This document shows positions 14,545 to 31,053 of a stretch of 64,000 bases of DNA, piece after piece. The position numbers were made by a program, and so were the translations under genes. Origin of the DNA: Actinomycetota bacterium. GTDB taxonomy: Bacteria > Actinomycetota > Acidimicrobiia > Acidimicrobiales > JAMCPD01. Position 1 is the first letter of the stretch, and each line of letters opens with the position of its first letter. The notes below the pieces were generated by a model. It did no database searches, was not told the origin of the DNA, and saw nothing but the letters and a program-made list of their open reading frames with translations. The DNA lies in the NCBI GenBank assembly GCA_023379935.1, contig JAMCPD010000002.1, positions 4,411 through 68,410 on the forward strand, read 5' to 3'.

Positions 14545-15135
14545 GGACCTACCCCCTAATTCCGTACATACGAATCTAAAAAATAAAGGAGAATATGTAT
14601 ATGGAAAATAACAAGAATGGAATCAAACCTTTCTTTTTTGAGTGAGTTCAAAGCTGATGCCGTAAAGCTTGTCAATTCAAGTTCCAGGCCTGTTACTCAG
14701 ATCGCGAGAGAGCTGGGAGTATCAGAAAGTGCTTTGAGGGCATGGATAAAGAAGGTAGGTAATGAAAATGACGGAGTTAAGCCTATGTCCATGGAAGAGC
14801 AGTTGAAGCTGGGCAAAAGGGAAAACGAGGAACTTTAGAATGGAGCGGGAAATCTTAAAACGCTTTGGACCTTCTGGGTGAAGGAGACAAACGGGAGATG
14901 ATATACCAGTTCATCTCCTCCCAGAAGGCCAAATTTCCTATAAAGATTCTATGTCGAGTTTGCAATGTCCCTCGTTCAAGCTATTACGACTGGATAAAAG
15001 TTGCAGATTCCAGGGCAAAAAGACAAGCAGAAAGGAATGTCTCAAAAAAGCTGGTCAGTCAAGTGCTATGAGAAGTCAAGATGCAACTACTGAGGCTACC
15101 CATAAGATCACCTTTGCACTGCGTGCTAACAATAT
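14545..15135 (+). pseudogene. IS3-family element remnant (left IR, orfA with premature stop, truncated/frameshifted orfB)
   Basis: IS3-type end TGGACCTACCCCCTAATTCCG. OrfA HTH is AVKLVNSSSRPVTQIARELGVSESALRAWIKK. OrfB N-terminus is FPIKILCRVCNVPRSSYYDW, then ITFALRANNI after a frameshift. No DDE core follows. Confidence 0.7.
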
Positions 15136-15480
15136 CGACTGGGACGCCGGTCGATTGGTCCAAGGTTCCTGTTAGACCCTATGGGTGGGAACCGGACAAA
15201 AACACCCGCAGTTCGCGGGGAAGTGCCCGAGCCGAAGGTCGTAAGACCAAAGGAGAGGAGAGGAAGACCGCTCGTTCGAATTTAGAGAACGAGGCAGTGA
15301 CCGCCCTTAATCGGGAAGCAGCCTTGACACCTGTTGGGGTGTGTGGATGAATATATCATCCCGAGGCTGCACGGCTGGAGCACCAGCCGCTCGTGTGTCA
15401 CTAAAAGACACTTGAAGAGGAACGGATAGTGTTCATGGCAGGAAGGGAGTCTATTATGGCTGACAAAGTGGAGGGCTCAG
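15136..15480 (+). mobile_element. structured GC-rich non-coding segment, possibly a truncated group II intron ribozyme (5' domains only)
   Basis: No coherent ORF. There is a series of strong local hairpins: cccgc-agttc-gcggg, ctcgttc-gaatttaga-gaacgag, ggctgg-agca-ccagcc, gtgtc-actaaaa-gacac. It interrupts IS3 orfB. The assignment rests on general resemblance only. Confidence 0.3.
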
Positions 15481-15552
15481 AGCGGTTGTTTCAAATACAC
15501 TTTTAGACTGTTAAAATCTGTGAAGTTTCCTGAGACAAATCCGCCCATTTTC

Positions 15553-15614
15553 CCTTGTTTAAGTCGCTGTTAAACAGTTAAAGCTTGATGTATCCGCTCG
15601 AGTATTTTGTGTTC
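15553..15614. repeat. 62-bp direct repeat, right copy (island boundary)
   Basis: Matches 10394-10455 at 58 of 62 positions. Contains the stop and last 14 codons of the SCP2 gene on the minus strand. Confidence 0.9.
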
Positions 15615-15953
15615 TCCAGTTAAGATATCCACCTTACCTTTAATTTTTATTCTTCCTGCAGAGAGTGCTTCTTGAATGGTCATTGTTCCTTCCGACAGTG
15701 AGTTGGCGCAGGAATAGTCTTGGGTAATGGTGAGGGATACCCTGTCCTTATTATCAATGTCTTTCATAAGAGTTACCTTGTTCGCAGATACATCAAGGTA
15801 ATAAGAGATATCCTTCCCTAAAGGTGCATCTGTTAGACAATATTGGATTACAAACGGTTCAGACAAGTCTGAAGAGTTGAAATGGCTGGTTGCTAAAAGC
15901 TTATTTGCTTGTTCAAACCATTCTGCACTTAGAAATTCCGTCATACTCGCCAT
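15570..15953 (-). CDS. SCP2 sterol-binding domain protein
   Basis: SAEWFEQANKLL at the N-terminus and AGRIKIKGKVDIL near the C-terminus are typical of the SCP2 fold. 127 aa. Confidence 0.7.
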   Translation of the reverse strand: MASMTEFLSAEWFEQANKLLATSHFNSSDLSEPFVIQYCLTDAPLGKDISYYLDVSANKVTLMKDIDNKDRVSLTITQDYSCANSLSEGTMTIQEALSAGRIKIKGKVDILTGEHKILERIHQALTV

Positions 15954-15963
15954 TGTATAGCTG

Positions 15964-17043
15964 TTATATCAGGCTGTTATCCGGCTCGTACTGTGATACG
16001 GTATCTTGGATTGAAGAGTGGGCATCTGAAGCTGTCCACCAACCCAAAGATGCGAGGGCGACGATCCCTACCCATATTACTCCGGCAACAGCCAGATGTA
16101 CGTCTGCCAGTCCTTCGGGTGCTTTGTAGAGCGCCACCAATGCTCCCAGTGCTATTTGGATCAGGAAAAATAGTCCGGTCAAAGCTGCTATGGGACGTGA
16201 TCCGGGAGTTGTGCGCCAATGTCTCCACACATGGACTAAAAAAAGTCCAATTACCAATGTAGTCAGGACAACTATTGATCTGTGCAATAACTGCAATGTA
16301 ATTAGCCCGCTGGGGGCCGGGCTGGAGAAACATAAAGGCCATGACGGGCAACTACTCTCTGCTCCTCCGTTTACCACCAATGATCCGGAGATGAGCAGCA
16401 CATAGGTACATGACAATGCAACCCATCCTGAGATTCCCAACCGTTTTACTCTTGGTTGGTTTAGAACTGTTATCGTTGAGCCTGCAGCCAAGGAGGTGGG
16501 AGGCAGGTAGGATACCACTGTTGCTACGGCCAGGACAACCATGACAGCGAGAAACAACATTGCTGTTAGCATATGAAGTGCCACTGTCCAAGGTGCATTA
16601 TGAGTGAATACGGTAACTGCCCCGAGTATAACCTGTAAGATAATCAGGGCTGATGCAACCACTGCTGGTTTTAGTGCAATTGCCGCTTGTTGACGTTGCG
16701 ACAAGATGGTTGTTCTGTCGTGATCGGTATGGTTGACGTGATCAGTACGGGTACTGCTCATACGCCAAAGTAAGAATGTGATCAAAAAGGTGAGTATCGT
16801 AATGATTGATGCCAGGTAACGGTGAGACTGTTCAAGTATCGCATGAAAATGATCTACGTATCCGACTTGTCCATAACAAAGTGGCCAGCTTGGGCATCCC
16901 ATTCCGGAGTTGGTTACCCGTACTGTACTGCCCAGAACTATCAAGGCCCATGTGATAAGCATATTGATTATAGCGAACCATGCCAACCATTTACCTGTCG
17001 GGAACAGTTGTGAGTGTTGTTGATCAGCCTTTGTTGTTTTCAT
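15964..17043 (-). CDS. ctaA: heme A synthase (COX15/CtaA family)
   Basis: Polytopic membrane protein with the paired motifs GMGCPSWPLCYG and CPSWPLCF. Confidence 0.8.
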   Translation of the reverse strand: MKTTKADQQHSQLFPTGKWLAWFAIINMLITWALIVLGSTVRVTNSGMGCPSWPLCYGQVGYVDHFHAILEQSHRYLASIITILTFLITFLLWRMSSTRTDHVNHTDHDRTTILSQRQQAAIALKPAVVASALIILQVILGAVTVFTHNAPWTVALHMLTAMLFLAVMVVLAVATVVSYLPPTSLAAGSTITVLNQPRVKRLGISGWVALSCTYVLLISGSLVVNGGAESSCPSWPLCFSSPAPSGLITLQLLHRSIVVLTTLVIGLFLVHVWRHWRTTPGSRPIAALTGLFFLIQIALGALVALYKAPEGLADVHLAVAGVIWVGIVALASLGWWTASDAHSSIQDTVSQYEPDNSLI

Positions 17044-17055
17044 ACTTCACAATAA

Positions 17056-17892
17056 TTATCTGTTTACCAGTATAGCATAGTTATCCAAAAGTGTCAATAC
17101 TTCATCCCTGCTGCCGGTTGGTATCCACAGGACAACCCTTTCCGCCCCGTTTTCAGCCAGGTTATCTACTATTTCGCAGGTTCCGATAACTCCAAAAGCC
17201 GTGACCGGTATCTTCTCTCGCCCCTTATTTCTTGCCAGTTCTTGCAGTTGGGCTACTTTTGGACCGAGCGGTTTTTGTGAAAGTCCGACATTGGGCATCC
17301 AGCCATCCCCATACTCCACTACCTTGTTATAAACCGTCTTGGCATTTCCTCCCACCAAAATTGGTGGCCCTCCTTTCTGTAGGGGTTTTGGCCAGCACCA
17401 TATAGGATCAAAGTTGACAAACTGTCCGTGAAACTCGGCTTCTTCCTCTGTCCAAATTAGCTTTAAGGCTTTAGCCTTTTCTGCCATAATCTTCCATCTC
17501 TTGGAAGGGTCTATTCCATGGTTACGCATCTCTTCTTCGTTCCAGCCTGCCCCTATCCCCAGTAATACTCTTCCTCCTGAGAGCTGGTCAAGGGTGGCAA
17601 CCTCTTTTGCCAGCTGAATTACGTCACGTTGAATTATCAGGCAGATTCCGGTTGCCAAGAGCAAACTTTTTGTCGCAGCGGCACAAGCTGCAAGGGAGAC
17701 AAAAGGATCCATTATATGGAGATACTCTTTTGGAAGTTCAATTCCACCCATGTAAGGGCTTAGCCGTGAAGTCGGGATATGGCTGTGCTCCGGTAAGAAC
17801 AGCGATTCAAATCCTCGTTCTTCAGCTGCGGTAGCTAATTCTACGATACCCATTGAGTACTCGGTCGGGAAGACAACCAGTCCTAGTTTCAT
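17056..17892 (-). CDS. LLM-class (luciferase-like) F420-dependent oxidoreductase
   Basis: MKLGLVVFPTEY...AEERGFESLFLPEHSHIP and LLGIGAGWNEEE are typical of the TIGR03619-like LLM family. Confidence 0.75.
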   Translation of the reverse strand: MKLGLVVFPTEYSMGIVELATAAEERGFESLFLPEHSHIPTSRLSPYMGGIELPKEYLHIMDPFVSLAACAAATKSLLLATGICLIIQRDVIQLAKEVATLDQLSGGRVLLGIGAGWNEEEMRNHGIDPSKRWKIMAEKAKALKLIWTEEEAEFHGQFVNFDPIWCWPKPLQKGGPPILVGGNAKTVYNKVVEYGDGWMPNVGLSQKPLGPKVAQLQELARNKGREKIPVTAFGVIGTCEIVDNLAENGAERVVLWIPTGSRDEVLTLLDNYAILVNR

Positions 17893-18053
17893 ATTGGACA
17901 GACTAGTTTAATTTATACAGTTCTATCAACTTGCACCGTTTTGTTAATTTGTGTGAGTATGGATAATACTGTTAGGTTTATCACGTTTGCGTAGTTGAAC
18001 TTGGACTGTTATAAACTGATAGTTGATATATACATAGTTGAATATCTATAAAG

Positions 18054-19775
18054 GTGTGGTTGACAATGGAGCAAGAACATTTTGATGTGGTCATAATCGG
18101 TGGAGGGCATAACGGAAGCACCTTGGCTGCTTACTTGGCCAAGTCGGGAGTCAGTGTATGCATCTTGGAGGCTCGTTCTGAATGCGGGGGCGGTCAAGAG
18201 AACACAGAAGTACGCCCGGGTTTCAAGATAGACCCTCATGCGACGTTTCTCTATGGGGGGGCGGCACCCGGTTTTGACCAGCTTGAGCTGTTCAAGTATG
18301 GAATGCGAATGGTGTGGTATTCCTCAATGGCGGGACTGGTTACATTAGATGGTATGGCTGTCAATTTGGGCGGTCGTTTTACGGCCGGGTTGGCGGAGGA
18401 AAGCATAGAAAAGTATGCACCGGGTGTCTCAACCGCGGAGGTTGGCAATATTTTTACCGCCTTGGGGGAAGCTCATATGAGAGAGCTGCTCAGAGCCTTG
18501 TTTTGGACACCTCCTTATCCATTAGATGTGGAAGTGGATCTTCGCGACATGCCATGGTGGCAGGTTTTCCGTAAGTATCTGCCGGGATTTTGGACTGAAG
18601 AACTGGTGGATATGAGCTACATAGACTTCTTGGAGGCAATGGTTACTTGGGAACCCCTCCGCGTGGTGGCTGCTTTTGGAGCCTGGTATTGTGGGGCACA
18701 TCCGGCTTGGGACGGAATGCTGCTTCCATCGTTGGGAGGGACACTGCTTTACAGCTACTCATCCGGTTCTCCGCGGGGCGGTATGCATACTTATGCTCAC
18801 GCAATAATACGTTGTGCTTTGGCTCATGGAGCACGCATTATCACCAATGCGCCCGTGGAAGAGATAATCGTCAAAAATGGTAGGGCGGTAGGGGTCCGTT
18901 TAAGTGATGATGCGGTTTTGCCCGAAAAGACCATATGGGCAGATAAGGCTGTAGTTTCGGGGGTAGACGTGAAACAAACCTTTTTACGGTTGGTTGGCAA
19001 GAAACATCTGGATGTCTCTTTTGTCCAAAAGGTAGGCGACGTTTCCTTAAAGGGCGGCAGTCTCTTCGTTATGCATGTTATATGTAGAGATCTTCCTAAC
19101 TATCACGGCATGAAAGAACCGTTCGATAAAACCGTATATCCTGCAACTATAATAGCTCCCGCTGATTCAATGGACTTCTTTTGGACACAAACCCAAGATG
19201 CTTATTCGCACAAGATCCCACCTGCTCCAACCCCTGAGCATCTGACTATGATGATCTGCAATCACGACCTTTATGATCCCACACGTTCGCCGGAAGGCTA
19301 TCACCTTCTTTCACCCATTTACATTGAAGTCCCGCCACCTCAATACGATGTAACCGGGCCGGAGGGAATCAACAGGCATAAGTCAGAGATAACAAAAGCA
19401 GCACTGAACTTGTTGGGTGAGCTTGCTCCTAATATGAAGGGGGACAACATAGTGGATGTTTTTGTAAATACCCCTTATGACTCAGAGTTTAGAAATGCCG
19501 GCATGTCGGGTGGAAACTGGTATGGTGCCAGGCAGTCTGAAGATCAGTGGTTCTCAAGGCGACCCTTGCCTGAGCTATCCAGGTATAGGACTCCCATAGA
19601 TCGTCTTTATCTGTGCAACCATACTTCTCATCCGGGTGGGCTTTGTTTGATGGCTGTGCCGTATAATTTGATGCATATTTTGATTGAAGATGGCATAGCT
19701 GAGCCGGGTAGCTGGTGGTATCCGTCAGACTGGTGGCTTAGCGAAGGTGATTCTCCAAAGGTGGAAGTAAAATGA
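18054..19775 (+). CDS. phytoene-desaturase-family (COG1233) FAD-dependent oxidoreductase, paralog 1
   Basis: FDVVIIGGGHNGSTLAAYLAKSGVSVCILEARSECGGG; C-terminal LYLCNHTSHPGG. Likely ATG at 18066. Confidence 0.8.
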   Translation: MWLTMEQEHFDVVIIGGGHNGSTLAAYLAKSGVSVCILEARSECGGGQENTEVRPGFKIDPHATFLYGGAAPGFDQLELFKYGMRMVWYSSMAGLVTLDGMAVNLGGRFTAGLAEESIEKYAPGVSTAEVGNIFTALGEAHMRELLRALFWTPPYPLDVEVDLRDMPWWQVFRKYLPGFWTEELVDMSYIDFLEAMVTWEPLRVVAAFGAWYCGAHPAWDGMLLPSLGGTLLYSYSSGSPRGGMHTYAHAIIRCALAHGARIITNAPVEEIIVKNGRAVGVRLSDDAVLPEKTIWADKAVVSGVDVKQTFLRLVGKKHLDVSFVQKVGDVSLKGGSLFVMHVICRDLPNYHGMKEPFDKTVYPATIIAPADSMDFFWTQTQDAYSHKIPPAPTPEHLTMMICNHDLYDPTRSPEGYHLLSPIYIEVPPPQYDVTGPEGINRHKSEITKAALNLLGELAPNMKGDNIVDVFVNTPYDSEFRNAGMSGGNWYGARQSEDQWFSRRPLPELSRYRTPIDRLYLCNHTSHPGGLCLMAVPYNLMHILIEDGIAEPGSWWYPSDWWLSEGDSPKVEVK

Positions 19776-21511
19776 ACAATGCAACTAAAGGTGGAACCAA
19801 ACTTGGGAACAGAGTCGGTATCAATATTACTCCCCCGGAGCATATTTTGGAGGAGTTTCCTCAAGAGTCTTCTTATGACGTAGTGGTTGTGGGCGGGGGA
19901 CCAAATGGATTAATAACAGCCGCTTACCTAGCCAAGGCGGGGCTTTCGGTAATTGTGGTGGAACGTCGCCATGAGATAGGCGGTGGGCTTGCAACGGAGG
20001 AGACCTTATTCCCCGGCTTTTATACCAATCCTCACGCTATCTACCACATGATGGTTGATTATATGCCGTTGTTTCGCGATTTTGATCTTGCCAAGCATGG
20101 GCTGTCCTTTGTCAAGCCAAATGCCCAAATGGCCATGGTCTTCTCTGATTCTTGTCACTTGCTGCTGTGTAACCAGCCTGAGGACACCAAGGACTCCATA
20201 GCCAAGTTTTCCCCCCAAGATGCAAGGGCATTTGGGAAGATCATCCGTAAATGGCGTACGCTTGTCGATGAGCTAATCGCACCGGGAACATATGTACCGC
20301 CGTTAGAACCCATAGATATGATTGAAGCTTTTGAGCGCACTCCATTGGGCCGTGAGGTGCTACGCCTTAGTGAGATGTCACCCCGTGAGATAATTTTTGA
20401 GTCTTTTGAAAATGATCGAGTAAGGGCAGCCATGTTGTATGCCGCGTGTATGTGGGGACTCAACCCCAATGATACCGGACTCGGCTTTTTAGTCCCTCTT
20501 CTTATAGACAGGGCAATGAACAAGGCTCAATGCTATGGGGGTTCACACAAGCTGGCCGGTGCGCTATCGCGTGTTATTCATGCCTCTGGCGGTGTGGTTT
20601 TGGACCAGGCGGAGGTAACCAGGATTATCCTTCATGATGGTGTTGTAAGCGGTGTTGAGTGTTTTGACGGGAGGATCATAAATGCAAAGGTGGTGGTTTC
20701 GAGCTTACCGCCGCCACTGACCTTTGGAACCTTAATGGCCGGCAATGATGATGTGATAAGTTCGGATGGTCAAGGTTCGACTCTTACGGCTGGCATCCCT
20801 GCCGCTTTGCAAGAGACTGCTCACCATTGGGAGTGGGATGGATGGTCGTTTTTTACCCTTGCCGTTGTGACAAAAGAACCTCCCCGGTACAATACCGACG
20901 ATTCTTGGATCAATGATGCTTTTATGGTTGTAATGGGATTTGATTCAACCGATGAGCTTTTAAGCCGTTGGAATGGAGTTTTAGCCGGTGATGCTTACTC
21001 AGTTCCCTTGGGTGGGCACAGTAGCGTTGAGACCCGTTACGATCCTACACTTGTCAGGATCGGCGGGCATGCTGTCAGCTTTTTGCAAGTACATGTACCC
21101 TATGAAATAGAGGGCGGTTGGGATTTGAAAAAAGATGATTTTGGGACAAAACTGCTTGAAACTTGGAGGCGTTATGCACCCAATCTTGATGATGACAACA
21201 TTGTCATGACCTCTTCGGAAACTCCTTTGGACATTGAAACCCGCATAGCCACCATGGTGCGCGGGTCAATTAAGCATGGAGAGTACAATCCGCTGCAGAT
21301 GGGGGTTTTTCGCCCCAGCGATACCTGTGTTGGCGGATGTACACCGATAGAGGGACTTTACCTTTGTGGTGCATCTTCATATCCGGGGGGACTGGTGATA
21401 GGAGGTCCCGGCTATATAGCAGCCAACTCTATAGCTGAGGATCTGGGTATAGAAAAATGGTGGTCAACCCCTGATTATATTGCTCACTACAAGGATACCT
21501 ACTTGTCATGA
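19772..21511 (+). CDS. phytoene-desaturase-family FAD-dependent oxidoreductase, paralog 2
   Basis: YDVVVVGGGPNGLITAAYLAKAGLSVIVVERRHEIGGG; LYLCGASSYPGG. ATGA overlap with paralog 1. Confidence 0.8.
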   Translation: MNNATKGGTKLGNRVGINITPPEHILEEFPQESSYDVVVVGGGPNGLITAAYLAKAGLSVIVVERRHEIGGGLATEETLFPGFYTNPHAIYHMMVDYMPLFRDFDLAKHGLSFVKPNAQMAMVFSDSCHLLLCNQPEDTKDSIAKFSPQDARAFGKIIRKWRTLVDELIAPGTYVPPLEPIDMIEAFERTPLGREVLRLSEMSPREIIFESFENDRVRAAMLYAACMWGLNPNDTGLGFLVPLLIDRAMNKAQCYGGSHKLAGALSRVIHASGGVVLDQAEVTRIILHDGVVSGVECFDGRIINAKVVVSSLPPPLTFGTLMAGNDDVISSDGQGSTLTAGIPAALQETAHHWEWDGWSFFTLAVVTKEPPRYNTDDSWINDAFMVVMGFDSTDELLSRWNGVLAGDAYSVPLGGHSSVETRYDPTLVRIGGHAVSFLQVHVPYEIEGGWDLKKDDFGTKLLETWRRYAPNLDDDNIVMTSSETPLDIETRIATMVRGSIKHGEYNPLQMGVFRPSDTCVGGCTPIEGLYLCGASSYPGGLVIGGPGYIAANSIAEDLGIEKWWSTPDYIAHYKDTYLS

Positions 21512-21960
21512 AGATCAAATCCAGGGGGCTTGGGCGCCGTGAACTGCTTGTTGATTTCAATGAATTCAAGATTACCCGCCAAGGGGATGAGGTGGTATTG
21601 GATGGCAACACCCATGCTCCGGTAACCTGGGAAACCACAATACGAATTACACCTTCTGACATACCCTCAATGATAAGACTGGCCGTCAATCCCAAGATAA
21701 TAGGTTTAGGCTTTCGTTGGGTTTTCAGTCTGTTTCGTCGAAGGTCACATGATGTGAACCCAGCCGAGCGCACTGGAATGGCCGCAGATACCGCTCAAGC
21801 TGAAGGGTTGGCTAAAGCTCCGCGCATACCAGCAGACTTGAGGGCACAGCGTGCGGCTCGTTTGCAGGCCAAAATGGCAACAGAACAAACTGCAGTTTCA
21901 CAGGTCGGTATCAAGCCCGGGTCGCCTGAATCAGAGGAGGTGACAGATCGGAATGCCTGA
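21508..21960 (+). CDS. hypothetical 150-aa protein, translationally coupled inside the oxidoreductase operon
   Basis: Overlaps the stop of the upstream gene (21508/21511) and the start of the downstream gene (21953/21960). No motif recognised. Confidence 0.5.
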   Translation: MKIKSRGLGRRELLVDFNEFKITRQGDEVVLDGNTHAPVTWETTIRITPSDIPSMIRLAVNPKIIGLGFRWVFSLFRRRSHDVNPAERTGMAADTAQAEGLAKAPRIPADLRAQRAARLQAKMATEQTAVSQVGIKPGSPESEEVTDRNA

Positions 21961-23578
21961 AGTATCTTATGACGCTTCTTATGATGCTATTGTGGTTGGT
22001 GCGGGGCATAATGGTCTGTGTTTGGCCGCTTACTTGGCTAGGGCTGGCTTGTCTACTGCGGTGATAGAACGTCGCCATGAAGAAGGCGGGGGAGCCAATA
22101 CCGAGGAGCCCGTAATGGCGGGATTCAGACACAATATGCATGCCCAGTATATGGAGTTTTTCGATATAATGCCCATGATTCAAGACTTTCACTTGGATGA
22201 AATCGGGTTGCGTACCGTAATGCCTGAGGTTCAGGCAGGCATAACCTTTAGAGATGGAAGACCGCCAATAGTACTGCACAGACCTGACTTACTTGATCGC
22301 ACTCACGCCAGTATATCCCGTTATTCAACGGCTGATGCCGATACGTTTGTAGAGTTGAAGCGTTTGGCAATAAACATTGAGCCATTAATTGCTCTAAACT
22401 TATACAATCCCCCCATGCCGGTGCCTCCAGAGGGGCAGCTTGCCATGCTGGAAGGAGCATTCGGACATGCCGGACTTGGGATAGGTCCCCACTGGCTTGC
22501 CAAGACTCCCAAGGCTCTTATCGATGAGCTTTTTGAAACACCCGAGCTGAGAGCTTTAATGTATCGCATCACGGTGGAATGGGGCTTTCCGGTGGATCAA
22601 GCAAATACCGGTGGGGGATTTTTAACTTTTGTACTCTGGACGTGCGGCAACTGGAAACTGGCCAAAGGCGGAACACATTCCTTGGCTAAGGCAATGACGC
22701 AGGCTTGCTATCAAGTAGGTGTAGACTTGATAGAGAACACAGCCGTTAAAGAGATAGTTGTAAGAGGAGAGCGGGCAGTTGGGGTACGTACCTCGGATGG
22801 CAAGTACATTGAGGCGAAAAAACTGGTTGCGTCCAATGCAGACATCAAACAGACTCTTTTGGATATGGTTGGTCAAAACCATCTCAGTCAACTTTGGGTC
22901 AAAAGAGCAAAGGCATTTCGCTATGGACCCAGCCATGTGCTTGGGACATTGGCTTTTTGCTTGCATGAAGCTCCAAACTATCTTTCTGCCCGCTGGGACC
23001 CCGACATAAACAACTGTTTTTATACTGTTGTGGGTTTCGACGGGCCTGATGATATGATCCGTTACATCAGAGATGCTTATTCGGGTCGTTTACCCGAACC
23101 TGCTGCGGGAACATGGGTCAACAGTTTATGGGATCCTTCTCAAGCCCCTCCCAGCAAGCATTCTCTGACCGGATGGTATTTTTTCCCGCCTGCAAGTTCT
23201 CTCAGTGCAAAAGACTGGCAAGAGGTGCGAAACAGTTACAATGAACGGTTTTTGTTAAAGTGGGAGAAGTTCGCGCCCAATATGACGAGAGACAACGTTA
23301 TAGCTATGCGCCTCTACACACCTGATCAAATGGAGCACAAAAACCTGATGATGGAAGGAGACTTTTCAAACGGTGAGTTTTCTGTTGATCAAATGGGTCA
23401 AAACCGTCCGTTTCCGGAAGCGTCCAACTACCGAACCGAACTTGAGGGGCTTTACCTTTGCGGTCCTTCCTCTCATCCGGGTGGCGGTATGCATGCGGCA
23501 TGCGGATACAATGCTTATAAAGTTATAGCTCAAGATATCGGGTTGCCAAGCCCACTAGTTTCAGAAAGAGGTTATTAA
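21953..23578 (+). CDS. phytoene-desaturase-family FAD-dependent oxidoreductase, paralog 3
   Basis: YDAIVVGAGHNGLCLAAYLARAGLSTAVIERRHEEGGG; LYLCGPSSHPGG. Confidence 0.8.
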   Translation: MPEVSYDASYDAIVVGAGHNGLCLAAYLARAGLSTAVIERRHEEGGGANTEEPVMAGFRHNMHAQYMEFFDIMPMIQDFHLDEIGLRTVMPEVQAGITFRDGRPPIVLHRPDLLDRTHASISRYSTADADTFVELKRLAINIEPLIALNLYNPPMPVPPEGQLAMLEGAFGHAGLGIGPHWLAKTPKALIDELFETPELRALMYRITVEWGFPVDQANTGGGFLTFVLWTCGNWKLAKGGTHSLAKAMTQACYQVGVDLIENTAVKEIVVRGERAVGVRTSDGKYIEAKKLVASNADIKQTLLDMVGQNHLSQLWVKRAKAFRYGPSHVLGTLAFCLHEAPNYLSARWDPDINNCFYTVVGFDGPDDMIRYIRDAYSGRLPEPAAGTWVNSLWDPSQAPPSKHSLTGWYFFPPASSLSAKDWQEVRNSYNERFLLKWEKFAPNMTRDNVIAMRLYTPDQMEHKNLMMEGDFSNGEFSVDQMGQNRPFPEASNYRTELEGLYLCGPSSHPGGGMHAACGYNAYKVIAQDIGLPSPLVSERGY

Positions 23579-23580
23579 CC

Positions 23581-24063
23581 ATGCCGGACATTTATACACA
23601 ACCGTGGTATGAGGCTGTCAAAGACACGATAAACCAAGAGGTGACCAAGCTCAAAGATATTCCCGATGGCAAGTGGGTGTTGGCAGTGGAAATAGTTGCA
23701 GATGGGGTATCACCTTATGTGGGAGGTGGCGCAGATGGTGCTGCAAATCTTACTGCCACCGGAGCAGATGAACGACATTTCCTGATTGAGATCAGTGACG
23801 GTCGTTGCAACTGGTATAAAGAGGTTGAAGGCGATTACGGTGATGTGGAGTTGAGCTACCGTTTCAGAGGTCCGGCCACTGTTTTTGATGAGATTGCAGC
23901 AGGGATAACGGATCCGATTGATGCCGCTTTAAAAGGGGCAGTTAAAGTCAGAGGTGATATGCGTTTGTTGATGCGTCAAGCAAAGCATGTTAAAGTACTC
24001 TTGGAGGCCTATTCAAAGGCTGTTGATACCTCTTGGCCCAAAGGAAAGCCACCTTATGCATAA
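23581..24063 (+). CDS. SCP2 sterol-binding domain protein
   Basis: QPWYEAVKDTIN at the N-terminus and AALKGAVKVRGDMRLLM near the C-terminus. Starts 3 nt after the stop of paralog 3. Confidence 0.65.
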   Translation: MPDIYTQPWYEAVKDTINQEVTKLKDIPDGKWVLAVEIVADGVSPYVGGGADGAANLTATGADERHFLIEISDGRCNWYKEVEGDYGDVELSYRFRGPATVFDEIAAGITDPIDAALKGAVKVRGDMRLLMRQAKHVKVLLEAYSKAVDTSWPKGKPPYA

Positions 24064-25708
24064 GAGGTATGATGCCGTAATTATCGGTGCCGGTCACAAC
24101 GGTTTAACTTTGGGTGCCTACTTGGCAAGAAGTGGATTGGATGTAGTTGTCTTAGAACGCCGTCATGAAGAAGGCGGCGGGCTTTGCACTGAAGAGCTTA
24201 CCCGCCCCGGGTTTTTGCACAACATACACGCCAACTACCACACCTTTGTAGACTTAGCGCCTCCCATAGAAGATCTTGAACTTAGAAAAAATGGTGTTGT
24301 ATATGTGAGGCCTGAGGTTCAAATGGCTTCCATTTTTGAAGACAATACGGCTCTTTGTATATACACCGATTTGGATGCCACCGTTGAGTCAATGTCGCGT
24401 TTTTCTCCTGCTGATGCAGAAACTTTTAAGCGTCTCTATACGGAAGCACATGGGTATGTGGACTTGTTATTGGGTACTTTAATGTTTCAGCCCCCGATGT
24501 CGATCAAAGAGTTGACTGGCGCGCTCGGAACTTTCGGAATAGAGGATCGTTCGGAGTTCTTAGGCGTGAAACTGCGCCGTCAAAGCATCAACCAGTTTTT
24601 GGATCAACATTTTGAACACCCCAAGATCAAAGCCCACTTGGCTTTCCATGGTGCGGTGTGCGGATATGCTAACGATGTGGTTGGGCTTGCAATCGGTTTT
24701 CCGCTGCTGATCGGCAAGATAGACAACTGGAATCTTTGTGTTGGAGGGTCCCATCGCCTTGCCCATGCTTTGTGGAGAGATCTGGCACACCATGGCGGTA
24801 CTTTGATCACAGATGCCGAGGTTGTTTCAATTGTTGTGGAAGACGGGCAGGCAACGGGGGTACGCTTGAGTGACGGGGAAGAAATACAAGCCACCAAGCT
24901 GGTTGCTTCGACGGTAGATGTGGAACAAACCTTTTTGAGGTTTTTGGGCAAAACGACCGGTGCCAGTGCGGATGGGGCCGGGGATAGCGTGAAAGAAGAT
25001 GCCGTGGGAGGTATTTCAACAGAACTTATCGACAGGGTTGAAAGCCGAATAGCTCATCAGGATTGGACGCTTTTCTCGGTTCACCTGGCCCTATCCGAGC
25101 CTCCTTATTACGAGGCGGCTGAGTTCAATCCCGATGTCAATAATGCCTGGGTTGTGAACCTCGGGTATGAATCACTTACGGAAATGAATCGTGACTGGCA
25201 AGATATACGAGCAGGGAAGCTTCCTTTGCCGAAACCGAATGCAGCCGTTAACTCACTTTTTGATACGACCGATGCCCCTGCCGGATGCTATACAGGTCTC
25301 TTACGTCAGTTTGCGCCGTTTTCTTTGGAACAAGAAGGACCCGGCGGGTGGGAGATCATAGGTCGCCAGTATGCAAGACAGTGCATCCAAACTTGGGAAC
25401 GGTTTGCCCCCAACTTGAGTTCCGACAAAGCGGTACTGGATTGGGTTCCTTATACTCCACTTGAGATTTCCCAAAAGATGATAAATATGGTTCAAGGAGA
25501 CTGGATGTGCGGAGCTATAAAATTGGACAACATGCTTGACCAGCGTCCATTGCCTGAACTAGGAGGATACAAGACGCCTATCGGAAGGCTTTATATGGCA
25601 GGCTCGACTCAGCATCCGCATGGTTTTATAACTTTTGGACCGGCTTACAACGCACTGTCGGTTATAGCGGATGATTTGGGAATAAAACCTTGGTGGAGGA
25701 GGATATAG
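24056..25708 (+). CDS. phytoene-desaturase-family FAD-dependent oxidoreductase, paralog 4
   Basis: ATG at 24056 gives MHKRYDAVIIGAGHNGLTLGAYLARSGLDVVVLERRHEEGGG and overlaps the SCP2 stop. The ORF track extends upstream to 23987. C-terminal LYMAGSTQHPHG. Confidence 0.8.
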   Translation: MHKRYDAVIIGAGHNGLTLGAYLARSGLDVVVLERRHEEGGGLCTEELTRPGFLHNIHANYHTFVDLAPPIEDLELRKNGVVYVRPEVQMASIFEDNTALCIYTDLDATVESMSRFSPADAETFKRLYTEAHGYVDLLLGTLMFQPPMSIKELTGALGTFGIEDRSEFLGVKLRRQSINQFLDQHFEHPKIKAHLAFHGAVCGYANDVVGLAIGFPLLIGKIDNWNLCVGGSHRLAHALWRDLAHHGGTLITDAEVVSIVVEDGQATGVRLSDGEEIQATKLVASTVDVEQTFLRFLGKTTGASADGAGDSVKEDAVGGISTELIDRVESRIAHQDWTLFSVHLALSEPPYYEAAEFNPDVNNAWVVNLGYESLTEMNRDWQDIRAGKLPLPKPNAAVNSLFDTTDAPAGCYTGLLRQFAPFSLEQEGPGGWEIIGRQYARQCIQTWERFAPNLSSDKAVLDWVPYTPLEISQKMINMVQGDWMCGAIKLDNMLDQRPLPELGGYKTPIGRLYMAGSTQHPHGFITFGPAYNALSVIADDLGIKPWWRRI

Positions 25709-25766
25709 TCTGTTGATGCCTGCGACAGTTGATTATTCGAGATTACATGTTGATTAAAACCGTCAG

Positions 25767-27233
25767 ATGTATGATGTGATAGTAGTTGGCGCAGGATACG
25801 GGGGGGTTACTTGTGCCGGTTTGTTGACTAAATATGGTTATAAAGTAGCTTTAGTTGACAAAAATCCTAAGGCTGGGGGAAAGGCTATGAGTGTCAGCAA
25901 AAAAGGGTTTGTATATGAGATGTGGCCGATTCTTGGCGGACCTTCTGTGCCTTCCCGCTTTCATGAACTGGTGGATATTTTGCAACTGCACGATGATGTT
26001 GATTTGTTGACCTCCTCTGAAACCAGCGAAGAGTTTCGCTATATAAAATCAGATGGTCGGGTGGTAACATCGCCATTTCCAACTCAGGGTTCTTATGGTG
26101 ATTCAAATGAGATGAACAGGGTTCTTTCCGAAGCAGGTATAAGTTTAGCAGAGGCCGGAAACCTGTTGAAATTGATGGCTGCCATTTTGAGCACCACGCC
26201 GGAACAGTTGGAAGGCTTGGAACACGTTAGTGTTTTCGAATGGGTACGTTCTTTTGAGATAGGGAGTGTTTTGGAAAGCTATCAGTTTTCCCTATGCAAC
26301 CTGTTATTTGTTGTGGCGCTAGACAAGCTTCCCGCCGCAGAAGCGATAAGAACTCTGCGAGACTTCTATCAAGGCGGAGCAGGTCGCTATCATAGGAAGG
26401 GATATGGCTACGTAGCGCAAGCGGTAGTTGGATATATCCAAAACCACGGCGGCACTTGGTTGCCCAAGACTAAGGTTGATCAGATATTGGTTGAAGATGA
26501 TAGCGCTGTGGGAATAAAAGCTGGCGGCAAGGTTTACAAGGGGAAGACGGTTGTTTCAAATGCTGGGTTGCAACCCACAGTATTGAAACTGCTGGAGCCA
26601 TACTCAAGCACTGCACTGCCACCCGACTACCTTGAATGGGTAAAAAGGTTGGAACCTTCTTGGGCTTTTGTTGGCGTACGCTATTTTGTGGATGCTCCCG
26701 TATTCGACAAAGCCAGCATAATACAGTTTTCTGATGAGTCTTGGTGGGATACCGAGCGTTTCGAGAGCGCCAGGAATGGATCCTGGCCTGACCAGCCCTT
26801 GCTTTTTATCGTAGTTCCTTGTTTATATGATCCCTTATTGAGTCCCGACCCTTCTCACCAGGTAATTTTGGCGGGTACAATGTGTTCTCCTGATCCTTCC
26901 TCACCTATGAACCAAGCCGCAGTGGGAAAAGTAGAAAAGGTAATGGAAAAGTACTGGCCAGACCTGAGATGGCATACTACAAAAAAGGAGGCTTTTACTT
27001 CACAAAATATCTCAGCTCAAAGCCGTGCGAGTGTGGTTTTTGGACAAGGCGGGGAGTGTATTGGACTTGGTCAGGTAATCGGTCAATGCGGGCCTGACAA
27101 ACCCAACCCAAAAAGTCCTTTGAGCAGATTGTGGTTTGTAGGTTGTGATGCAGGTGGATATGGGTGCGGTACACATCAAGCTGTTGAATCCGGCTTTCAA
27201 GTAGCTGAGATGGTAGCCAAGGAGTTGGGCTAG
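25767..27233 (+). CDS. phytoene-desaturase-family FAD-dependent oxidoreductase, shorter divergent paralog 5
   Basis: MYDVIVVGAGYGGVTCAGLLTKYGYKVALVDKNPKAGGKA. 488 aa. Confidence 0.75.
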   Translation: MYDVIVVGAGYGGVTCAGLLTKYGYKVALVDKNPKAGGKAMSVSKKGFVYEMWPILGGPSVPSRFHELVDILQLHDDVDLLTSSETSEEFRYIKSDGRVVTSPFPTQGSYGDSNEMNRVLSEAGISLAEAGNLLKLMAAILSTTPEQLEGLEHVSVFEWVRSFEIGSVLESYQFSLCNLLFVVALDKLPAAEAIRTLRDFYQGGAGRYHRKGYGYVAQAVVGYIQNHGGTWLPKTKVDQILVEDDSAVGIKAGGKVYKGKTVVSNAGLQPTVLKLLEPYSSTALPPDYLEWVKRLEPSWAFVGVRYFVDAPVFDKASIIQFSDESWWDTERFESARNGSWPDQPLLFIVVPCLYDPLLSPDPSHQVILAGTMCSPDPSSPMNQAAVGKVEKVMEKYWPDLRWHTTKKEAFTSQNISAQSRASVVFGQGGECIGLGQVIGQCGPDKPNPKSPLSRLWFVGCDAGGYGCGTHQAVESGFQVAEMVAKELG

Positions 27234-27856
27234 GCGGAAGTTACCGGTGATGTTTCGTTCCAGCTTAAGATGACAGGCGTTCCTCTTTCGTATCCCAGTT
27301 TGCTTATCGATGCAGTGCTTAAAGTGAACAGACGGCCGTTTACAGGCGCCAAGCCCAACCAACGCGCGCACAGTATACGTAAACAGTGTGCATGCCCGAA
27401 GATAAGAGTTCTTTCTGATGTTACTTCTCGGCGAATTTCATTCAATATAGTGTCGACGCGTTTTCCAACTTCCCCCAAACTCTCGCCTTTTTCCACACCA
27501 TCATTCCACAGTGACCAACCGGGATGCATAGCCTGTATTTCAGCCGTAGTTTTGCCCTCGTAAGCTCCGTAGTCCCACTCAACCAGTTCGTCTCTTATCT
27601 CTGCTTTATCGTAGCCTGCAAGGGAGCAGGTTTGGCGCGCTCTCGATAGAGAACTGCAAAAAACACGCCCTACCTTGAGCCGGTCGAGCTCGTTCATCTT
27701 AGCAAGGCGATGTTTTAGCATGCTTGCTTGACGAATTCCTGTCTGATCCAAGGGGATATCAGATCTGCCGGTGTGAAGACCTTCCTTGCTCCAAGCCGTC
27801 TCCCCATGCCTAATCAGAACTATAGTCATACTGTTTGTTGCATCGGCTTTGTCCAT
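27230..27856 (-). CDS. histidine phosphatase family protein (phosphoglycerate-mutase-like)
   Basis: RHG motif IVLIRHGETAWS and a later GHAH. Its stop overlaps the stop of the convergent gene within the tetranucleotide CTAG. Confidence 0.75.
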   Translation of the reverse strand: MDKADATNSMTIVLIRHGETAWSKEGLHTGRSDIPLDQTGIRQASMLKHRLAKMNELDRLKVGRVFCSSLSRARQTCSLAGYDKAEIRDELVEWDYGAYEGKTTAEIQAMHPGWSLWNDGVEKGESLGEVGKRVDTILNEIRREVTSERTLIFGHAHCLRILCARWLGLAPVNGRLFTLSTASISKLGYERGTPVILSWNETSPVTSA

Positions 27857-27901
27857 TTACCGTTTTATCCTAGCCGTTTTTGGCGGTTGATCACAGTAAC
27901 A

Positions 27902-28486
27902 ATGTCAAACAAAAAAATTCCCTACTTGATCGTTGTGTTGTATGATTGTTTAATGAACTATCAACATGTTTTGGTGGATCCTGAATCATCCGGTATGGCT
28001 AGTATGCTGGGGGACTTATTAGAGGAGAACATAGCAGATTCCAAGATCAGGAGGCGGTTACTTGCCATTGGCAAGGGTGGCGTAGTTATTACTGCAGCCG
28101 ATAAGGGAGTTTCTGTTTTGCTCCTGTTTGAGCGGGATAAGGTGAGGATAGTTGACTTAGACACTGATGCCTGTGTCAGCGGTCACCAGTTTTGTGAACT
28201 TAGTGGACCTTGGTTGGATATGGCGGACCTGTGTTCCGGGCAGCTTTCTGTGTTTAGAGCCATATACAATGGCAAGCTAAAGATCAGACGATTGAAATAT
28301 GTCCACAAAGAAGATATTTTAGCACTTGTCGCGGCTTCAGTACTGTTAAAAGTTCCGTCATCATTCTATGGTGAGAAACAAAAATGGCCGTATGTGGTAG
28401 TGACTGTTGTTGGGGTAGCTGGCCTTGTTGCCCTTTTGATTCACTTTAGAAAAAGATGTTTTTCAACTACCGGGGTTTCCCTTTAG
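27902..28486 (+). CDS. SCP2-like domain protein with C-terminal transmembrane anchor
   Basis: ATG at 27902 or 27953. LGDLLEENI...GKGGVVITAADKGVSVLLLFERDKV...YNGKLKIRRL resembles SCP2. C-terminal WPYVVVTVVGVAGLVALLIHF is hydrophobic. The upstream part of the ORF-track frame overlaps the phosphatase gene. Confidence 0.45.
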   Translation: MSNKKIPYLIVVLYDCLMNYQHVLVDPESSGMASMLGDLLEENIADSKIRRRLLAIGKGGVVITAADKGVSVLLLFERDKVRIVDLDTDACVSGHQFCELSGPWLDMADLCSGQLSVFRAIYNGKLKIRRLKYVHKEDILALVAASVLLKVPSSFYGEKQKWPYVVVTVVGVAGLVALLIHFRKRCFSTTGVSL

Positions 28487-28691
28487 AATAGATTTACCGC
28501 AAGGACTTGGGAGTTGGTGCGCACCCGACTCTACTCTAACGGACATCCTTCACTATCAGGAAAGTTGTCGATATCTGCTATCTGAGTAGGACATCTGTTC
28601 CTCGTTCCAGAGACCTCCATTTGGGAGTATGACCGGTGAACAACATTGCCCAGCGGATGGTAGGAGTTGTCAAAAATACCCGAATAACACC

Positions 28692-29978
28692 CTATTCATA
28701 GATCTTTTCATCATCCGCATCGGCTCCCTCCGCATCAGCTTCAACGTTGCGCCTGTTGCGTCGGCGGGCATCTTGTGCATACTGCTTATACCATTCATGG
28801 GCAACAATCAAGGACATCATTTCATTTGTACCGGTCCATATTGAGGCAAGCCTGATATCTCTGAATGTACGCTCTATCGGGAAAACATTAGTGTAACCGA
28901 TGCCACCCATTACCTGCATGGCCTTATTGGTTACTTCCTGGCAGCTTTGTGTAACAAATTTTTTAGTTTCACTGATTAAACGGCGGGTTGTGCTGACATC
29001 CAGTCCCTTGTCAACGGCCAGAGCCGTCGTGTAGACCATGGCACGTGCGGTATCAAGGAGCATAACGGAATCGGCTACCTGAAAGCTAACTCCCTCAAAC
29101 TGATTTATTATTTGTCCGAAAGCCTTTCTTCGTGAAGTATATCCTGTTGCGACATCAATTACGGGGGCGGTGGCTCCGATAGTCATAGCGGCAGTGCCTA
29201 ATCGTTCCGGTATCATCATGGTGTCAAATACAGCTTTCCCACCTCCCTGTGCACCAAGCAGGTTTTCTTTTGGGATCTCTACATTATGAAAAGCCAGCCT
29301 TCCTGTTCCCCCACCACGACAACCCATCAACCCGTAAAGGTATTCGACTCTTACACCCGGTCCACGGTCAACTATGAAACAGCTAAGGTGTTGGTGTGAA
29401 CTTTGATCAGAGTTGGAGGTTGGTGCTGAGTCGCCTTCGTTGCCTTCCCCTGTTATCGTGCGGGCATAGACTAAAAAATAATCGGCACCCTCAGCTCCAA
29501 CAATGAAACGCTTTTGACCGTTTAATACAAAATAATCACCTTTATCCGATGCCACCGTCGTTGCTCCAAAAAAGTCCGATCCTCCGCGTGGTTCAGTCAA
29601 ACATTCCGCCGCAAACTTTTCTCCCCTCAAGACGGGGAGTACATAGCGCTCGCGCTGCTCGTCGGTGCCGTGTTGGATAATGGCATCACATACCAGCTCC
29701 GCACCAACCCCAAAAATACAAGCAAAGATATACCCGAGCACCCCTACTTCCTCTAACACCATGCAAGCAGTAACCCAGTCCATGCCGCGACCACCCCACT
29801 TTTTAGGATACCTGCAACCAAAAAGATGCCTCTTGCCGGCTTCAGCTAAGAACTCCTTCGGGAATGAAATCTTGTCTTTATCCATATCCAAGATCATCCG
29901 CTTGGGTACCCAAGATACAAACTCCCTGACCTCTTCCCTTATAGCCAGCTGTTCTTTGCTCAACAAAAAATCAAACAT
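28692..29978 (-). CDS. acyl-CoA dehydrogenase family protein
   Basis: CLTEPRGGSDF, and IWTGTNEMMSLIVA near the C-terminus, followed by an acidic tail. Confidence 0.8.
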   Translation of the reverse strand: MFDFLLSKEQLAIREEVREFVSWVPKRMILDMDKDKISFPKEFLAEAGKRHLFGCRYPKKWGGRGMDWVTACMVLEEVGVLGYIFACIFGVGAELVCDAIIQHGTDEQRERYVLPVLRGEKFAAECLTEPRGGSDFFGATTVASDKGDYFVLNGQKRFIVGAEGADYFLVYARTITGEGNEGDSAPTSNSDQSSHQHLSCFIVDRGPGVRVEYLYGLMGCRGGGTGRLAFHNVEIPKENLLGAQGGGKAVFDTMMIPERLGTAAMTIGATAPVIDVATGYTSRRKAFGQIINQFEGVSFQVADSVMLLDTARAMVYTTALAVDKGLDVSTTRRLISETKKFVTQSCQEVTNKAMQVMGGIGYTNVFPIERTFRDIRLASIWTGTNEMMSLIVAHEWYKQYAQDARRRNRRNVEADAEGADADDEKIYE

Positions 29979-30039
29979 GGCTACAGTTCATCTGGCAGCT
30001 GTACGCCGGTAAAGCCGTGATTTATCGAAACCGTCCACC

Positions 30040-31053
30040 TTAGATGACTCCCGATAAAGTCTTGATTGGCATAGACAAATCTTTCAACATTTCCAAGTCT
30101 TCTTTTGCCGTACGACCCAATGTTGTAAGGTAGTTACCCACTATCAGTGCATTTATACCTGATGTCATCCCCATGGCTTGAAGCTCTCTTAGGGTAACTT
30201 CCCGCCCGCCGGCGTAACGGAGCAGCACACCAGGTAGTCCCAGCCTGAACAGCGCTATCCATTTTATGGCTTCCATGGGGCTGATTAGTTGACTTTCGCC
30301 CAAAGGTGTTCCCGGCCTTGGGTTTAAAAAGTTAAGTGGTACTTCTGTTGGTTTGAGCTCAGCTAATTCTGCTATCAACTCCACTCTTTGTTCATCAGTT
30401 TCGCCCAATCCAATAATGCCGCCACAACAGAGTTCCATTCCCCATTTTCTCACCAGTTTGGCAGTTTGAACTCGCTCATCGAAAGTATGGGTAGTTACTA
30501 TATTTTGAAAAAAAGAGCGGGATGTTTCCAAGTTGTGATTATAACGATGAACGCTTGCTTCGCTTAAACGTCGTGCTTGGTTATCGGTTAAGATACCCGC
30601 ACTAACATTTACGTTTAATTTGGTATGTTGCTTCACAGTTTCAACCAACTCTATGATTTTTTCGAAAGTACGTTCATCTGGACCTCTTAGTGCCAAAACT
30701 ATGCAAAACTCTGTTGCACCGGTAGCTTCCGTCTCTTGCGCCGCTTTAAGTACTTCGTCCGGATCCAAAAAAGGAGTTGCATGCAGTGGAGAGTCATAGC
30801 TGGAGGACTGACTGCAGAACTTACAGTCTTCGGGGCAGGCTCCGGTTTTAGCCGATACGATTCCTTCCACATCCACCTCCGGACCGCACCAAGCCATTCT
30901 CACCTCATGAGCCAGCGCCGCAAGTGATACAGTTGCCTGCTCGGGCAGTTTTGCTAAAGCGTGAAGTTCTTGCAGTGTCAGAAAGCGACCTTCATCCACC
31001 AAGGCATGCCTTGCTTCAATGATTAAATTATTGTTATAGGAGTTGTCAATCAC
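30040..31053 (-). CDS. bioB: biotin synthase
   Basis: Radical-SAM CPEDCKFCSQS, YNHNLETS, length 337 aa. Confidence 0.85.
   Translation of the reverse strand: MIDNSYNNNLIIEARHALVDEGRFLTLQELHALAKLPEQATVSLAALAHEVRMAWCGPEVDVEGIVSAKTGACPEDCKFCSQSSSYDSPLHATPFLDPDEVLKAAQETEATGATEFCIVLALRGPDERTFEKIIELVETVKQHTKLNVNVSAGILTDNQARRLSEASVHRYNHNLETSRSFFQNIVTTHTFDERVQTAKLVRKWGMELCCGGIIGLGETDEQRVELIAELAELKPTEVPLNFLNPRPGTPLGESQLISPMEAIKWIALFRLGLPGVLLRYAGGREVTLRELQAMGMTSGINALIVGNYLTTLGRTAKEDLEMLKDLSMPIKTLSGVI

Follow-up and report, generated by a model that had tools for sequence, protein, structure and literature searches.

The window analysed here, a 64,000-nucleotide stretch of contig JAMCPD010000002.1 from an Actinomycetota bacterium (assembly GCA_023379935.1), carries an operon of five flavoprotein genes (P1 to P5) that also encodes an SCP2-fold protein (the SCP2 partner) and a small protein, U150, and that is followed downstream by a second gene for an SCP2-fold protein, c3 (Table 1). 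Comparative analyses suggest that P1 to P4 are dehydrogenase subunits of the type found in the limonene dehydrogenase CtmAB and the sterol delta-24 desaturase (delta-24-SD), each with a predicted covalent flavin. The locus probably encodes two covalent-flavin dehydrogenase complexes that, without oxygen and assisted by SCP2-fold proteins, oxidise isoprenoid-like lipids at allylic positions. By their content and order the genes form two putative modules: module A, consisting of P1, P2 and U150, and module B, consisting of P3, the SCP2 partner, P4 and c3. The host genome assembly comprises 25 contigs totalling 1.9 Mb and is an estimated 90.8% complete, and the nearest homologs carry the labels Acidimicrobiia or Acidimicrobiales.

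Flavinylation motif and family assignment

To our knowledge, the CtmAB/delta-24-SD family has only two characterised members, limonene dehydrogenase and sterol delta-24 desaturase. As described by Zhan et al. 2024 (PMC11061730), the delta-24-SD of Sterolibacterium denitrificans is encoded by a pair of adjacent genes whose products, of 63 and 57 kDa, share 26% identity with each other and 34% and 38% with CtmA and CtmB. The subunits (alpha, WP_067170564; beta, WP_067170561) bear covalent flavin mononucleotide (FMN) on His57/His58 within the consensus G-F-(L/R)-x-(N/S)-(T/L)-H-A. CtmA and CtmB also contain this histidine consensus, and Acidimicrobiales are named among the closest uncharacterised relatives of the enzyme (PMC11061730).

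The original prediction had drawn an analogy between the operon and CtmAB, and this is strengthened by the presence of a flavinylation histidine motif in all four long paralogs. The sequence G-F-x-x-(N/D)-x-H-A occurs in each of P1 to P4 approximately 45 residues past the GxGxxG motif, just as the histidine of delta-24-SD lies in G-F-x-x-N-x-H-A; covalent FMN is shown for delta-24-SD and predicted here. The four motifs (Table 1) depart from the published consensus at the third (K or Y), fifth (D) and sixth (P, M, I) positions. Nevertheless, the histidine is kept in 6/6 P1 orthologs, 6/7 P2 orthologs (the seventh, at locus L012, is garbled), 38/41 P3 orthologs (three alignments end before the motif) and 43/44 P4 orthologs (the remaining one is truncated). 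The garbled P2-like gene (L012:6282-7397) is affected at its N-terminus and may be frameshifted. A separate variation was seen among P4 orthologs, where Cys replaces the Ala that follows the flavinylation histidine (GFLHNVHC) in 13 loci (L028-L041, L047), all outside Actinomycetota. A Cys beside the flavin-bearing histidine could be relevant to the chemistry.

P1 to P4 are clear paralogs, with similarity that lies well above chance. In BLASTP comparisons, P3 and P4 are 34% identical (E 3e-96), P2 and P4 are 34% identical (E 2e-95), P2 and P3 are 32% identical (E 2e-71), and P1 is 26-30% identical to the other three (E 1e-31 to 2e-51). Identity within neighbouring pairs is 26-34%, compared with 26-27% for the known alpha/beta and CtmA/CtmB pairs, and the P3 and P4 genes are parted only by the 160-aa SCP2 gene. 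P5 aligns with P1 to P4 over partial lengths only (21-34% identity, E 1e-6 to 5e-8) and is the outgroup in a 97-protein tree, on a branch of length 3.4 outside P1 to P4. The proposed family of five paralogs thus stands for P1 to P4 and not for P5, which is, on this placement, a superfamily relative rather than a member of the set. The dinucleotide fold was correctly described as intact in all five, with a complete GxGxxG in P1 to P5. The C-terminal block LY(L/M)(C/A)G.S.HPGG, said to be shared by the first four, is exact in P3; P1, P2 and P4 differ from it at one to two positions.

Database names are uninformative for these proteins. P1 to P4 match generic flavoprotein families only in Pfam, and no protein named CtmA or delta-24-SD occurs among the best 120 matches of P4 and of P1, which carry generic names only. 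The closest PDB entries by sequence profile are CrtI-type enzymes at E 1e-15 to 1e-17, and therefore P1 to P4 have no close solved structure. For P5, Pfam Amino_oxidase matches over the full length with 59 bits, and the closest PDB entry is an uncharacterised oxidoreductase, 3ka7 (E 1e-13).

Two modules and their partner proteins

Motif comparisons suggest that the two flavoprotein pairs differ in kind. This typing was made by eye from the approximately 370 residues per subunit printed in Table S2 of PMC11061730, read against the alignment and the clade motifs. P1 and its five orthologs share with delta-24-SD alpha the sequence E-A-R-x-x-C-G after the second strand and H-A-T-aromatic-L after the histidine; within the P1 clade these take the specific forms E-A-R-x-E-C-G-G and H-A-T-(Y/F)-L in 6/6 sequences. 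Additionally, a five-residue insertion in the L-S-(D/E)-D-A... loop is common to the P1 clade and alpha, whereas P2 to P4 and beta do not have it. P2, P3 and P4 share E-R-R-H-E-x-G-G and H-A-x-Y with delta-24-SD beta, and H-A-I-Y-H is identical in P2 and beta. Therefore, P1/P2 may be regarded as an alpha/beta pair and P3/P4 as a beta-type pair. Module A would accordingly contain the canonical alpha/beta pair and module B two beta-type paralogs, in contrast to delta-24-SD with its alpha and beta subunits, although this is a reading of the sequences and not a computation. In the 97-protein tree, the four proteins fall into four clades with support of 100% (P1), 100% (P2), 99% (P3) and 99% (P4), and the P3 and P4 trees run parallel.

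Module B recurs in other genomes. A P4-seeded scan with one genome per species yielded 47 loci, which were scored with the window proteins; where a partner is missing, the locus mostly lies on a short contig that breaks off close to P4. The SCP2 partner is present in 41/47, P3 in 40/47 and c3 in 33/47, and P1, P2, U150 and P5 in 7/47, 7/47, 6/47 and 2/47, respectively. Only two gene orders occur among the 47 loci: P3-SCP2-P4-c3 in Actinomycetota, and P4-c3-P3-SCP2 in Chloroflexota, Myxococcota, Binatota and records labelled delta proteobacterium or Spirochaetales. In both, the SCP2 gene nearly always lies directly 3' of P3 and c3 lies after P4, with L044 as the single exception. The search of other genomes for the same gene order, originally proposed as a check, is thus positive for module B. 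These data agree with the suggested one or two heteromers supplied by SCP2, as P3, SCP2 and P4 occur together in 40-41 of the 47 loci and the P3 and P4 trees are parallel. The P5 orthologs (40% identity) adjoining the module in two loci are, like P5, without the histidine motif; P5 is probably an accessory gene with non-covalent flavin adenine dinucleotide (FAD). L012 is without both SCP2-fold partners, while L006, another locus in that genome, does have the SCP2 partner.

The SCP2 domain predicted at this position is confirmed by a Pfam score of 23.8 bits (cut-off 21.3). An alignment of 16 SCP2 partner sequences has 57% mean column identity and an invariant C-terminal T-x-W-P...P-P, and the family is small and tight: 53 representatives among 1.84 billion reach E<=1e-10, and 12 reach E<=1e-30. 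The SCP2 partner of the window has a 12-residue Gly/Ala-rich insertion that is missing from all 15 aligned orthologs. A complex prediction for P3 with the SCP2 partner gave a score of 0.01 (mark 0.32) and speaks neither for nor against binding.

The second carrier-like protein, c3, was first seen through clustering of flanking open reading frames (ORFs), as a gene for approximately 140-180 aa directly after P4 in relatives. In the host genome it was found with a relative's c3 as query (E 1e-20), beyond P5 and the histidine phosphatase gene. Sequence similarity of c3 to Pfam SCP2 is marginal: 7/12 family members match at E<=1 (best E 1.6e-5), and the window c3 scores 17 bits, below the cut-off. 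An AlphaFold2 (AF2) model with a predicted local distance difference test (pLDDT) score of 84.3 has a predicted C-terminal transmembrane (TM) helix at 146-171. The top Foldseek match of this model is the SCP2 domain of UbiJ (PDB 6h6o; E 6.9e-6, target TM-score 0.64), followed by sterol carrier proteins, among 23 matches at E<=0.001; sequence identity to UbiJ-SCP2 is only 13-15%. Most members of the c3 family end in a hydrophobic stretch, and c3 is therefore read as an SCP2-fold protein with a predicted tail anchor in the membrane. UbiJ holds polyprenyl intermediates for flavin-dependent Ubi enzymes, a role akin to the one proposed here for c3. The two differ in that the c3 model has a C-terminal TM helix, and in their partner enzymes.

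In module A, P1 and P2 lie side by side also in L019-L021, L023, L024, L042 and L051-L053. U150 homologs follow P2 in L012, L021, L023, L024, L042, L052 and L053; L005 has one U150 copy away from the module on the other strand. As originally reported, U150 belongs to no recognisable family, with no Pfam or NCBIfam match. Its N-terminal ~75 residues are conserved and its tail is variable and of low complexity. An AF2 model built from seven sequences (pLDDT 59) was too poor for a fold search. A word-based homolog search returned only U150 itself, and a language-model atlas returned only unnamed hypothetical clusters from Chloroflexota and Myxococcota.

The layout agrees with that first described: the seven ORFs, their overlaps and the gap are matched by the ORF list and the sequence. 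The gene set was correct as far as it went, but an eighth gene, c3, lies past the range then given. Stop/start overlaps are read at 19772/19775, 21508/21511, 21953/21960 and 24056/24063, with a 2-nt gap at 23578/23581; P1 and P2 overlap by 4 nt, and the stop of the SCP2 gene and the ATG of P4 by 8 nt. The longest P4 frame spans 23987-25708, and an internal ATG at 24056 gives the 550-aa form. The start at 24056 is preferred because homologs of 531-532 aa span 99-100% of this form. No promoter- or terminator-like signal rose above the shuffled background in a scan of 15300-28800.

Table 1. Genes of the flavoprotein locus and its immediate surroundings (positions in the window).
Feature	Coordinates	Strand	Description
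P1	18054..19775	+	573 aa, GTG start; alpha-type subunit, module A (by-eye typing); predicted flavinylation His62 in GFKIDPHA
P2	19772..21511	+	579 aa; beta-type subunit, module A (by-eye typing); predicted His88 in GFYTNPHA
U150	21508..21960	+	150 aa; small protein after P2, no family match
P3	21953..23578	+	541 aa; beta-type (by-eye typing), first flavoprotein of module B; predicted His63 in GFRHNMHA
SCP2 partner	23581..24063	+	160 aa; soluble SCP2-fold protein; Pfam PF02036
P4	24056..25708	+	550 aa; beta-type (by-eye typing), second flavoprotein of module B; predicted His58 in GFLHNIHA
P5	25767..27233	+	488 aa; distant amine-oxidase/CrtI-superfamily flavoprotein, no His motif
Histidine phosphatase gene	27230-27856	opposite to operon	between P5 and c3
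c3	27953..28486	+	177 aa; start 27953 or 27902; second SCP2-fold protein (predicted), C-terminal TM helix
SCP2-domain protein	15570-15953	-	third in region; Pfam 22.2 bits
COX15/CtaA-like membrane protein	15964-17043	-	only copy in genome
F420-dependent LLM-class oxidoreductase	17056-17892	-	TIGR03619, 253 bits

The locus resembles both characterised systems and departs from each. Like delta-24-SD, it has adjacent genes for divergent flavoproteins of about 60 kDa, but no SCP2-fold or U150-like partner is reported for delta-24-SD in the available text of PMC11061730, and both are present here. CtmAB of Castellaniella defragrans is likewise a COG1233-type flavoprotein pair, and a heteromer, as predicted here (PMC4109377). 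It oxidises an allylic methyl of a hydrocarbon without oxygen, and it hydroxylates with water and does not desaturate. In the ctmABCDEFG cluster (PMC4109377), CtmA and CtmB (27% identical) are accompanied by CtmC and CtmD, both small and hypothetical, and by a 2Fe-2S ferredoxin with its reductase. The small ctmC and ctmD genes after ctmAB recall the small partners found here, whereas the operon has neither the ferredoxin nor the ferredoxin reductase of the ctm cluster (PMC4109377). In the literature searched, no description was found of a module with two SCP2-fold partners, of the U150 partner or a tandem of both module types, or of both modules in a genome without a molybdenum (Mo) hydroxylase.

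Pathway context in relatives and in the host genome

Gene neighbourhoods in relatives place both modules beside a Mo enzyme. A molybdopterin enzyme of approximately 945-985 aa adjoins the module in 8 of the 47 P4-seeded loci. In L019 and L020, which have the same two-module operon, it lies directly 3' of c3, and iron-sulfur, heme-b and chaperone subunits accompany it in some loci. Among solved structures, the alpha subunit is best matched by ethylbenzene dehydrogenase (EBDH; E 7e-182), and NCBIfam places the Mo subunits in the type II dimethyl sulfoxide (DMSO) reductase/Ebd group. A P1-seeded metagenome scan gave four loci, two of which have the Mo enzyme beside module A: in L051 it is upstream of P1-P2, and L053 has the order P1-P2-U150-Mo enzyme with no P3/P4 between. 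Therefore, each module has its own, independent link to an EBDH-type hydroxylase. In Sterolibacterium, the desaturase forms a conjugated diene, after which a Mo-dependent C26 hydroxylase hydroxylates with water (PMC11061730). With delta-24-SD acting upstream of an EBDH-type Mo hydroxylase, the EBDH-type enzymes adjoining both modules in relatives mirror this desaturase and C26 hydroxylase. The flanks in relatives also contain aldehyde:ferredoxin oxidoreductases (4 loci), aldehyde dehydrogenases, enoyl-CoA hydratases, thiolase, acyl-CoA synthetases and short-chain dehydrogenases.

Oxygen-independent allylic oxidation is suggested by family membership and by the genes next to the modules in relatives, which encode EBDH-type, aldehyde-oxidising and beta-oxidation enzymes; the formation of complexes, the class of substrate, the type of reaction and the path of the electrons are likewise predictions. 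The SCP2-fold proteins would lift a water-insoluble isoprenoid-like lipid from the membrane or a carrier and present it to the flavoprotein pair at the cytoplasmic face, where they would also keep module B in place; no signal peptides were seen in the operon proteins. The flavins would then oxidise a C-H adjoining an existing double bond, and may thereby form a conjugated double bond, like delta-24-SD, or place a water-derived hydroxyl on an allylic methyl, like CtmAB. Electrons would pass to an acceptor, probably the membrane quinone pool, and the product could enter acyl-CoA-type breakdown. For delta-24-SD itself, the natural electron acceptor and the subunit arrangement are left open by its authors (PMC11061730).

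Several observations weigh against this proposal. P1 to P4 were likened to CtmA/CtmB and delta-24-SD by eye only, over the roughly 370 residues per subunit in print, and the tree leaves the deep branching order of P1 to P4 unresolved. A profile-profile comparison of the SCP2 family with the c3 family gave a probability of 4.5%, which is not significant, and common descent of these two families is not supported. The host genome is small. In this 90.8%-complete assembly, the Mo alpha subunit of the relatives has no match, MoaC was not found (it was found in 11/14 control genomes), and no 3-ketosteroid dehydrogenase scores above the cut-off; therefore, a complete catabolic route is not visible. 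The single PF00384 match in the genome lies on another contig and is unrelated. Unlike in the Sterolibacterium pathway, no EBDH-type Mo hydroxylase was found in the host. The module is also rare in the class, with the SCP2-partner profile matching 11/301 sampled genomes, host included, and 5/7 genomes in one family. Finally, the wider family is maybe not restricted to lipids, as suggested by aminomethyltransferase and ABC transporter genes beside distant members on a Shinella plasmid.

A bolder version of the proposal takes the missing Mo enzyme as its starting point, and is doubtful. Module B would be a four-subunit, membrane-tethered lipid dehydrogenase in which soluble and tail-anchored SCP2-fold subunits feed an isoprenoid lipid to a P3/P4 heteromer. 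The EBDH-type hydroxylase found after the operon in the closest relatives would have been lost from the host, which also seems unable to synthesise molybdenum cofactor. With neither this hydroxylase nor, it seems, a pathway to its cofactor, the host might use the flavin modules in place of the desaturase and Mo-hydroxylase pair, the two modules together carrying out an all-flavin, oxygen-independent desaturation followed by a water-dependent allylic hydroxylation.

Judged from this locus and its relatives, uncultured Acidimicrobiia, Chloroflexota, Myxococcota and Binatota hold a large share of family members, which come in at least two module types, one with two dedicated SCP2-fold partners and the other often with the small U150. 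The SCP2-fold and U150 partners are candidates for missing substrate-delivery and membrane-tethering components, and adding them may enable heterologous reconstitution. Oxygen-independent activation of isoprenoids and sterols matters for how persistent lipids are turned over in soils, sediments and water, and selective allylic oxidation is attractive chemistry.

Alternative explanations and flanking genes

If the locus were biosynthetic, then its enzymes would tailor an isoprenoid lipid of the cell's own, for instance a quinone side chain or polyprenyl lipid, with the SCP2-fold proteins presenting the substrate as UbiJ does. This is the leading rival but an unlikely one, although it would suit a streamlined genome without a downstream Mo hydroxylase or steroid ring-degradation genes. 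The top structural match of c3 is UbiJ-SCP2, P5 weakly resembles enzymes of the carotenoid isomerase/desaturase type, and the genome's only heme A synthase-like gene adjoins the operon. However, the genome has no match to a phytoene/squalene synthase, the patchy distribution in the class (11/301 genomes) is unlike that of a core lipid pathway, and the neighbours in relatives (EBDH-type enzymes, aldehyde oxidoreductases and beta-oxidation genes) are catabolic, as are both characterised family members.

Module A could alternatively be a sterol side-chain desaturase like delta-24-SD, the locus then serving partial degradation of plant, algal or animal sterols. By eye, P1 has the five-residue insertion and both signatures of the alpha subunit, and P2 has the H-A-I-Y-H of beta. 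Acidimicrobiales are among the closest relatives of delta-24-SD (PMC11061730), module A stands beside EBDH-type enzymes in L051 and L053, and SCP2 folds bind sterols. Against this, the host has neither a 3-ketosteroid-1-dehydrogenase above the cut-off nor an EBDH-type hydroxylase, and the likeness to delta-24-SD is a by-eye one. Moreover, delta-24-SD is described as highly substrate-specific (PMC11061730), and its function is therefore not transferable at about 30-50% identity. Such an assignment is distinctly improbable.

Very unlikely is a third possibility, that P1 to P4 are separate homo-oligomeric oxidases or dehydrogenases acting on various, maybe non-lipid substrates, with the SCP2 genes as mere neighbours. 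The P1/P2 and P3/P4 heteromers are predicted from the genes alone, distant plasmid members occur singly or with amino-acid-type neighbours, and the authors of the delta-24-SD work discuss homodimeric catalytic units within the complex (PMC11061730). Nevertheless, P3, SCP2, P4 and c3 keep a strict order across phyla, P3 and P4 have parallel phylogenies, translational coupling links the genes, and both characterised relatives are two-subunit enzymes.

Relatives of P3/P4 in a plasmid collection are only ~30% identical, and the SCP2 partner had no match in that collection. The Shinella plasmid (L049) carries a distant (~30%) overlapping pair followed by an aminomethyltransferase-family gene, with ABC transporter genes near. 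On a Diaphorobacter plasmid (L048) there are distant (~30%) single copies, each trailed by a small hypothetical gene. One of these copies has cytochrome c oxidase subunit III/IV family genes nearby, the other has Rieske oxygenase genes, and the region also contains enoyl-CoA hydratase genes.

A fourth alternative is that P1 to P4 are carotenoid enzymes (CrtI, CrtO or CrtD). P1 to P4 have the same amine-oxidase/GR2-type fold as CrtI/CrtO (PDB 4dgk, 4rep), which oxidise next to existing isoprenoid double bonds, as proposed for P1 to P4. CrtO (NF045689) is their top NCBIfam model over the full length, CrtI-type structures are their best PDB sequence matches, and the Joint Genome Institute (JGI) labels some homologs 'beta-carotene ketolase (CrtO type)'. 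That they are ordinary carotenoid desaturases or ketolases is nonetheless rejected as extremely improbable, since they fall far short of the CrtO cut-off of 1000 bits (145-218) and of the CrtI cut-off of 238 bits (TIGR02734; 54-96), carry the flavinylation histidine and occur in pairs, whereas CrtI-type enzymes are single-subunit with non-covalent FAD (PMC11061730), and have no carotenoid pathway context, with no match to phytoene/squalene synthase (PF00494) in the 90.8%-complete genome in a search that was positive in 8/14 control genomes. P5 scores 60 bits with the CrtI model and 63 with NF045689. The original prediction had likewise judged classical carotenogenesis unlikely.

Upstream of the operon, and transcribed divergently from it, are the three genes at 15570-17892 (Table 1). 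COX15-like genes follow the module in L012 and L045 too. This adjacency could be coincidence or could reflect a membrane electron-transfer link. As the sole copy in the genome, the COX15/CtaA-like protein is probably a housekeeping heme A synthase, and it was set aside as a dedicated electron acceptor. Further upstream, 10709-14838 contains transposase fragments (DDE_Tnp_1, ISL3, HTH_Tnp_1) and a gene for an AbiEii-type toxin, which is preceded by a small ORF and read with it as a toxin-antitoxin pair. The GC content of this stretch, which lies just upstream of the locus, is 0.37 compared with about 0.48 elsewhere. The low-GC transposase stretch, together with the patchy distribution of the module, hints at a horizontal arrival of the region.

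On the other side of the locus, two acyl-CoA dehydrogenase genes lie either side of bioB (biotin synthase) at 28692-32396. The first of these (28692-29978) may belong to the pathway, because it is 72% identical to the gene just upstream of P1 in L019.

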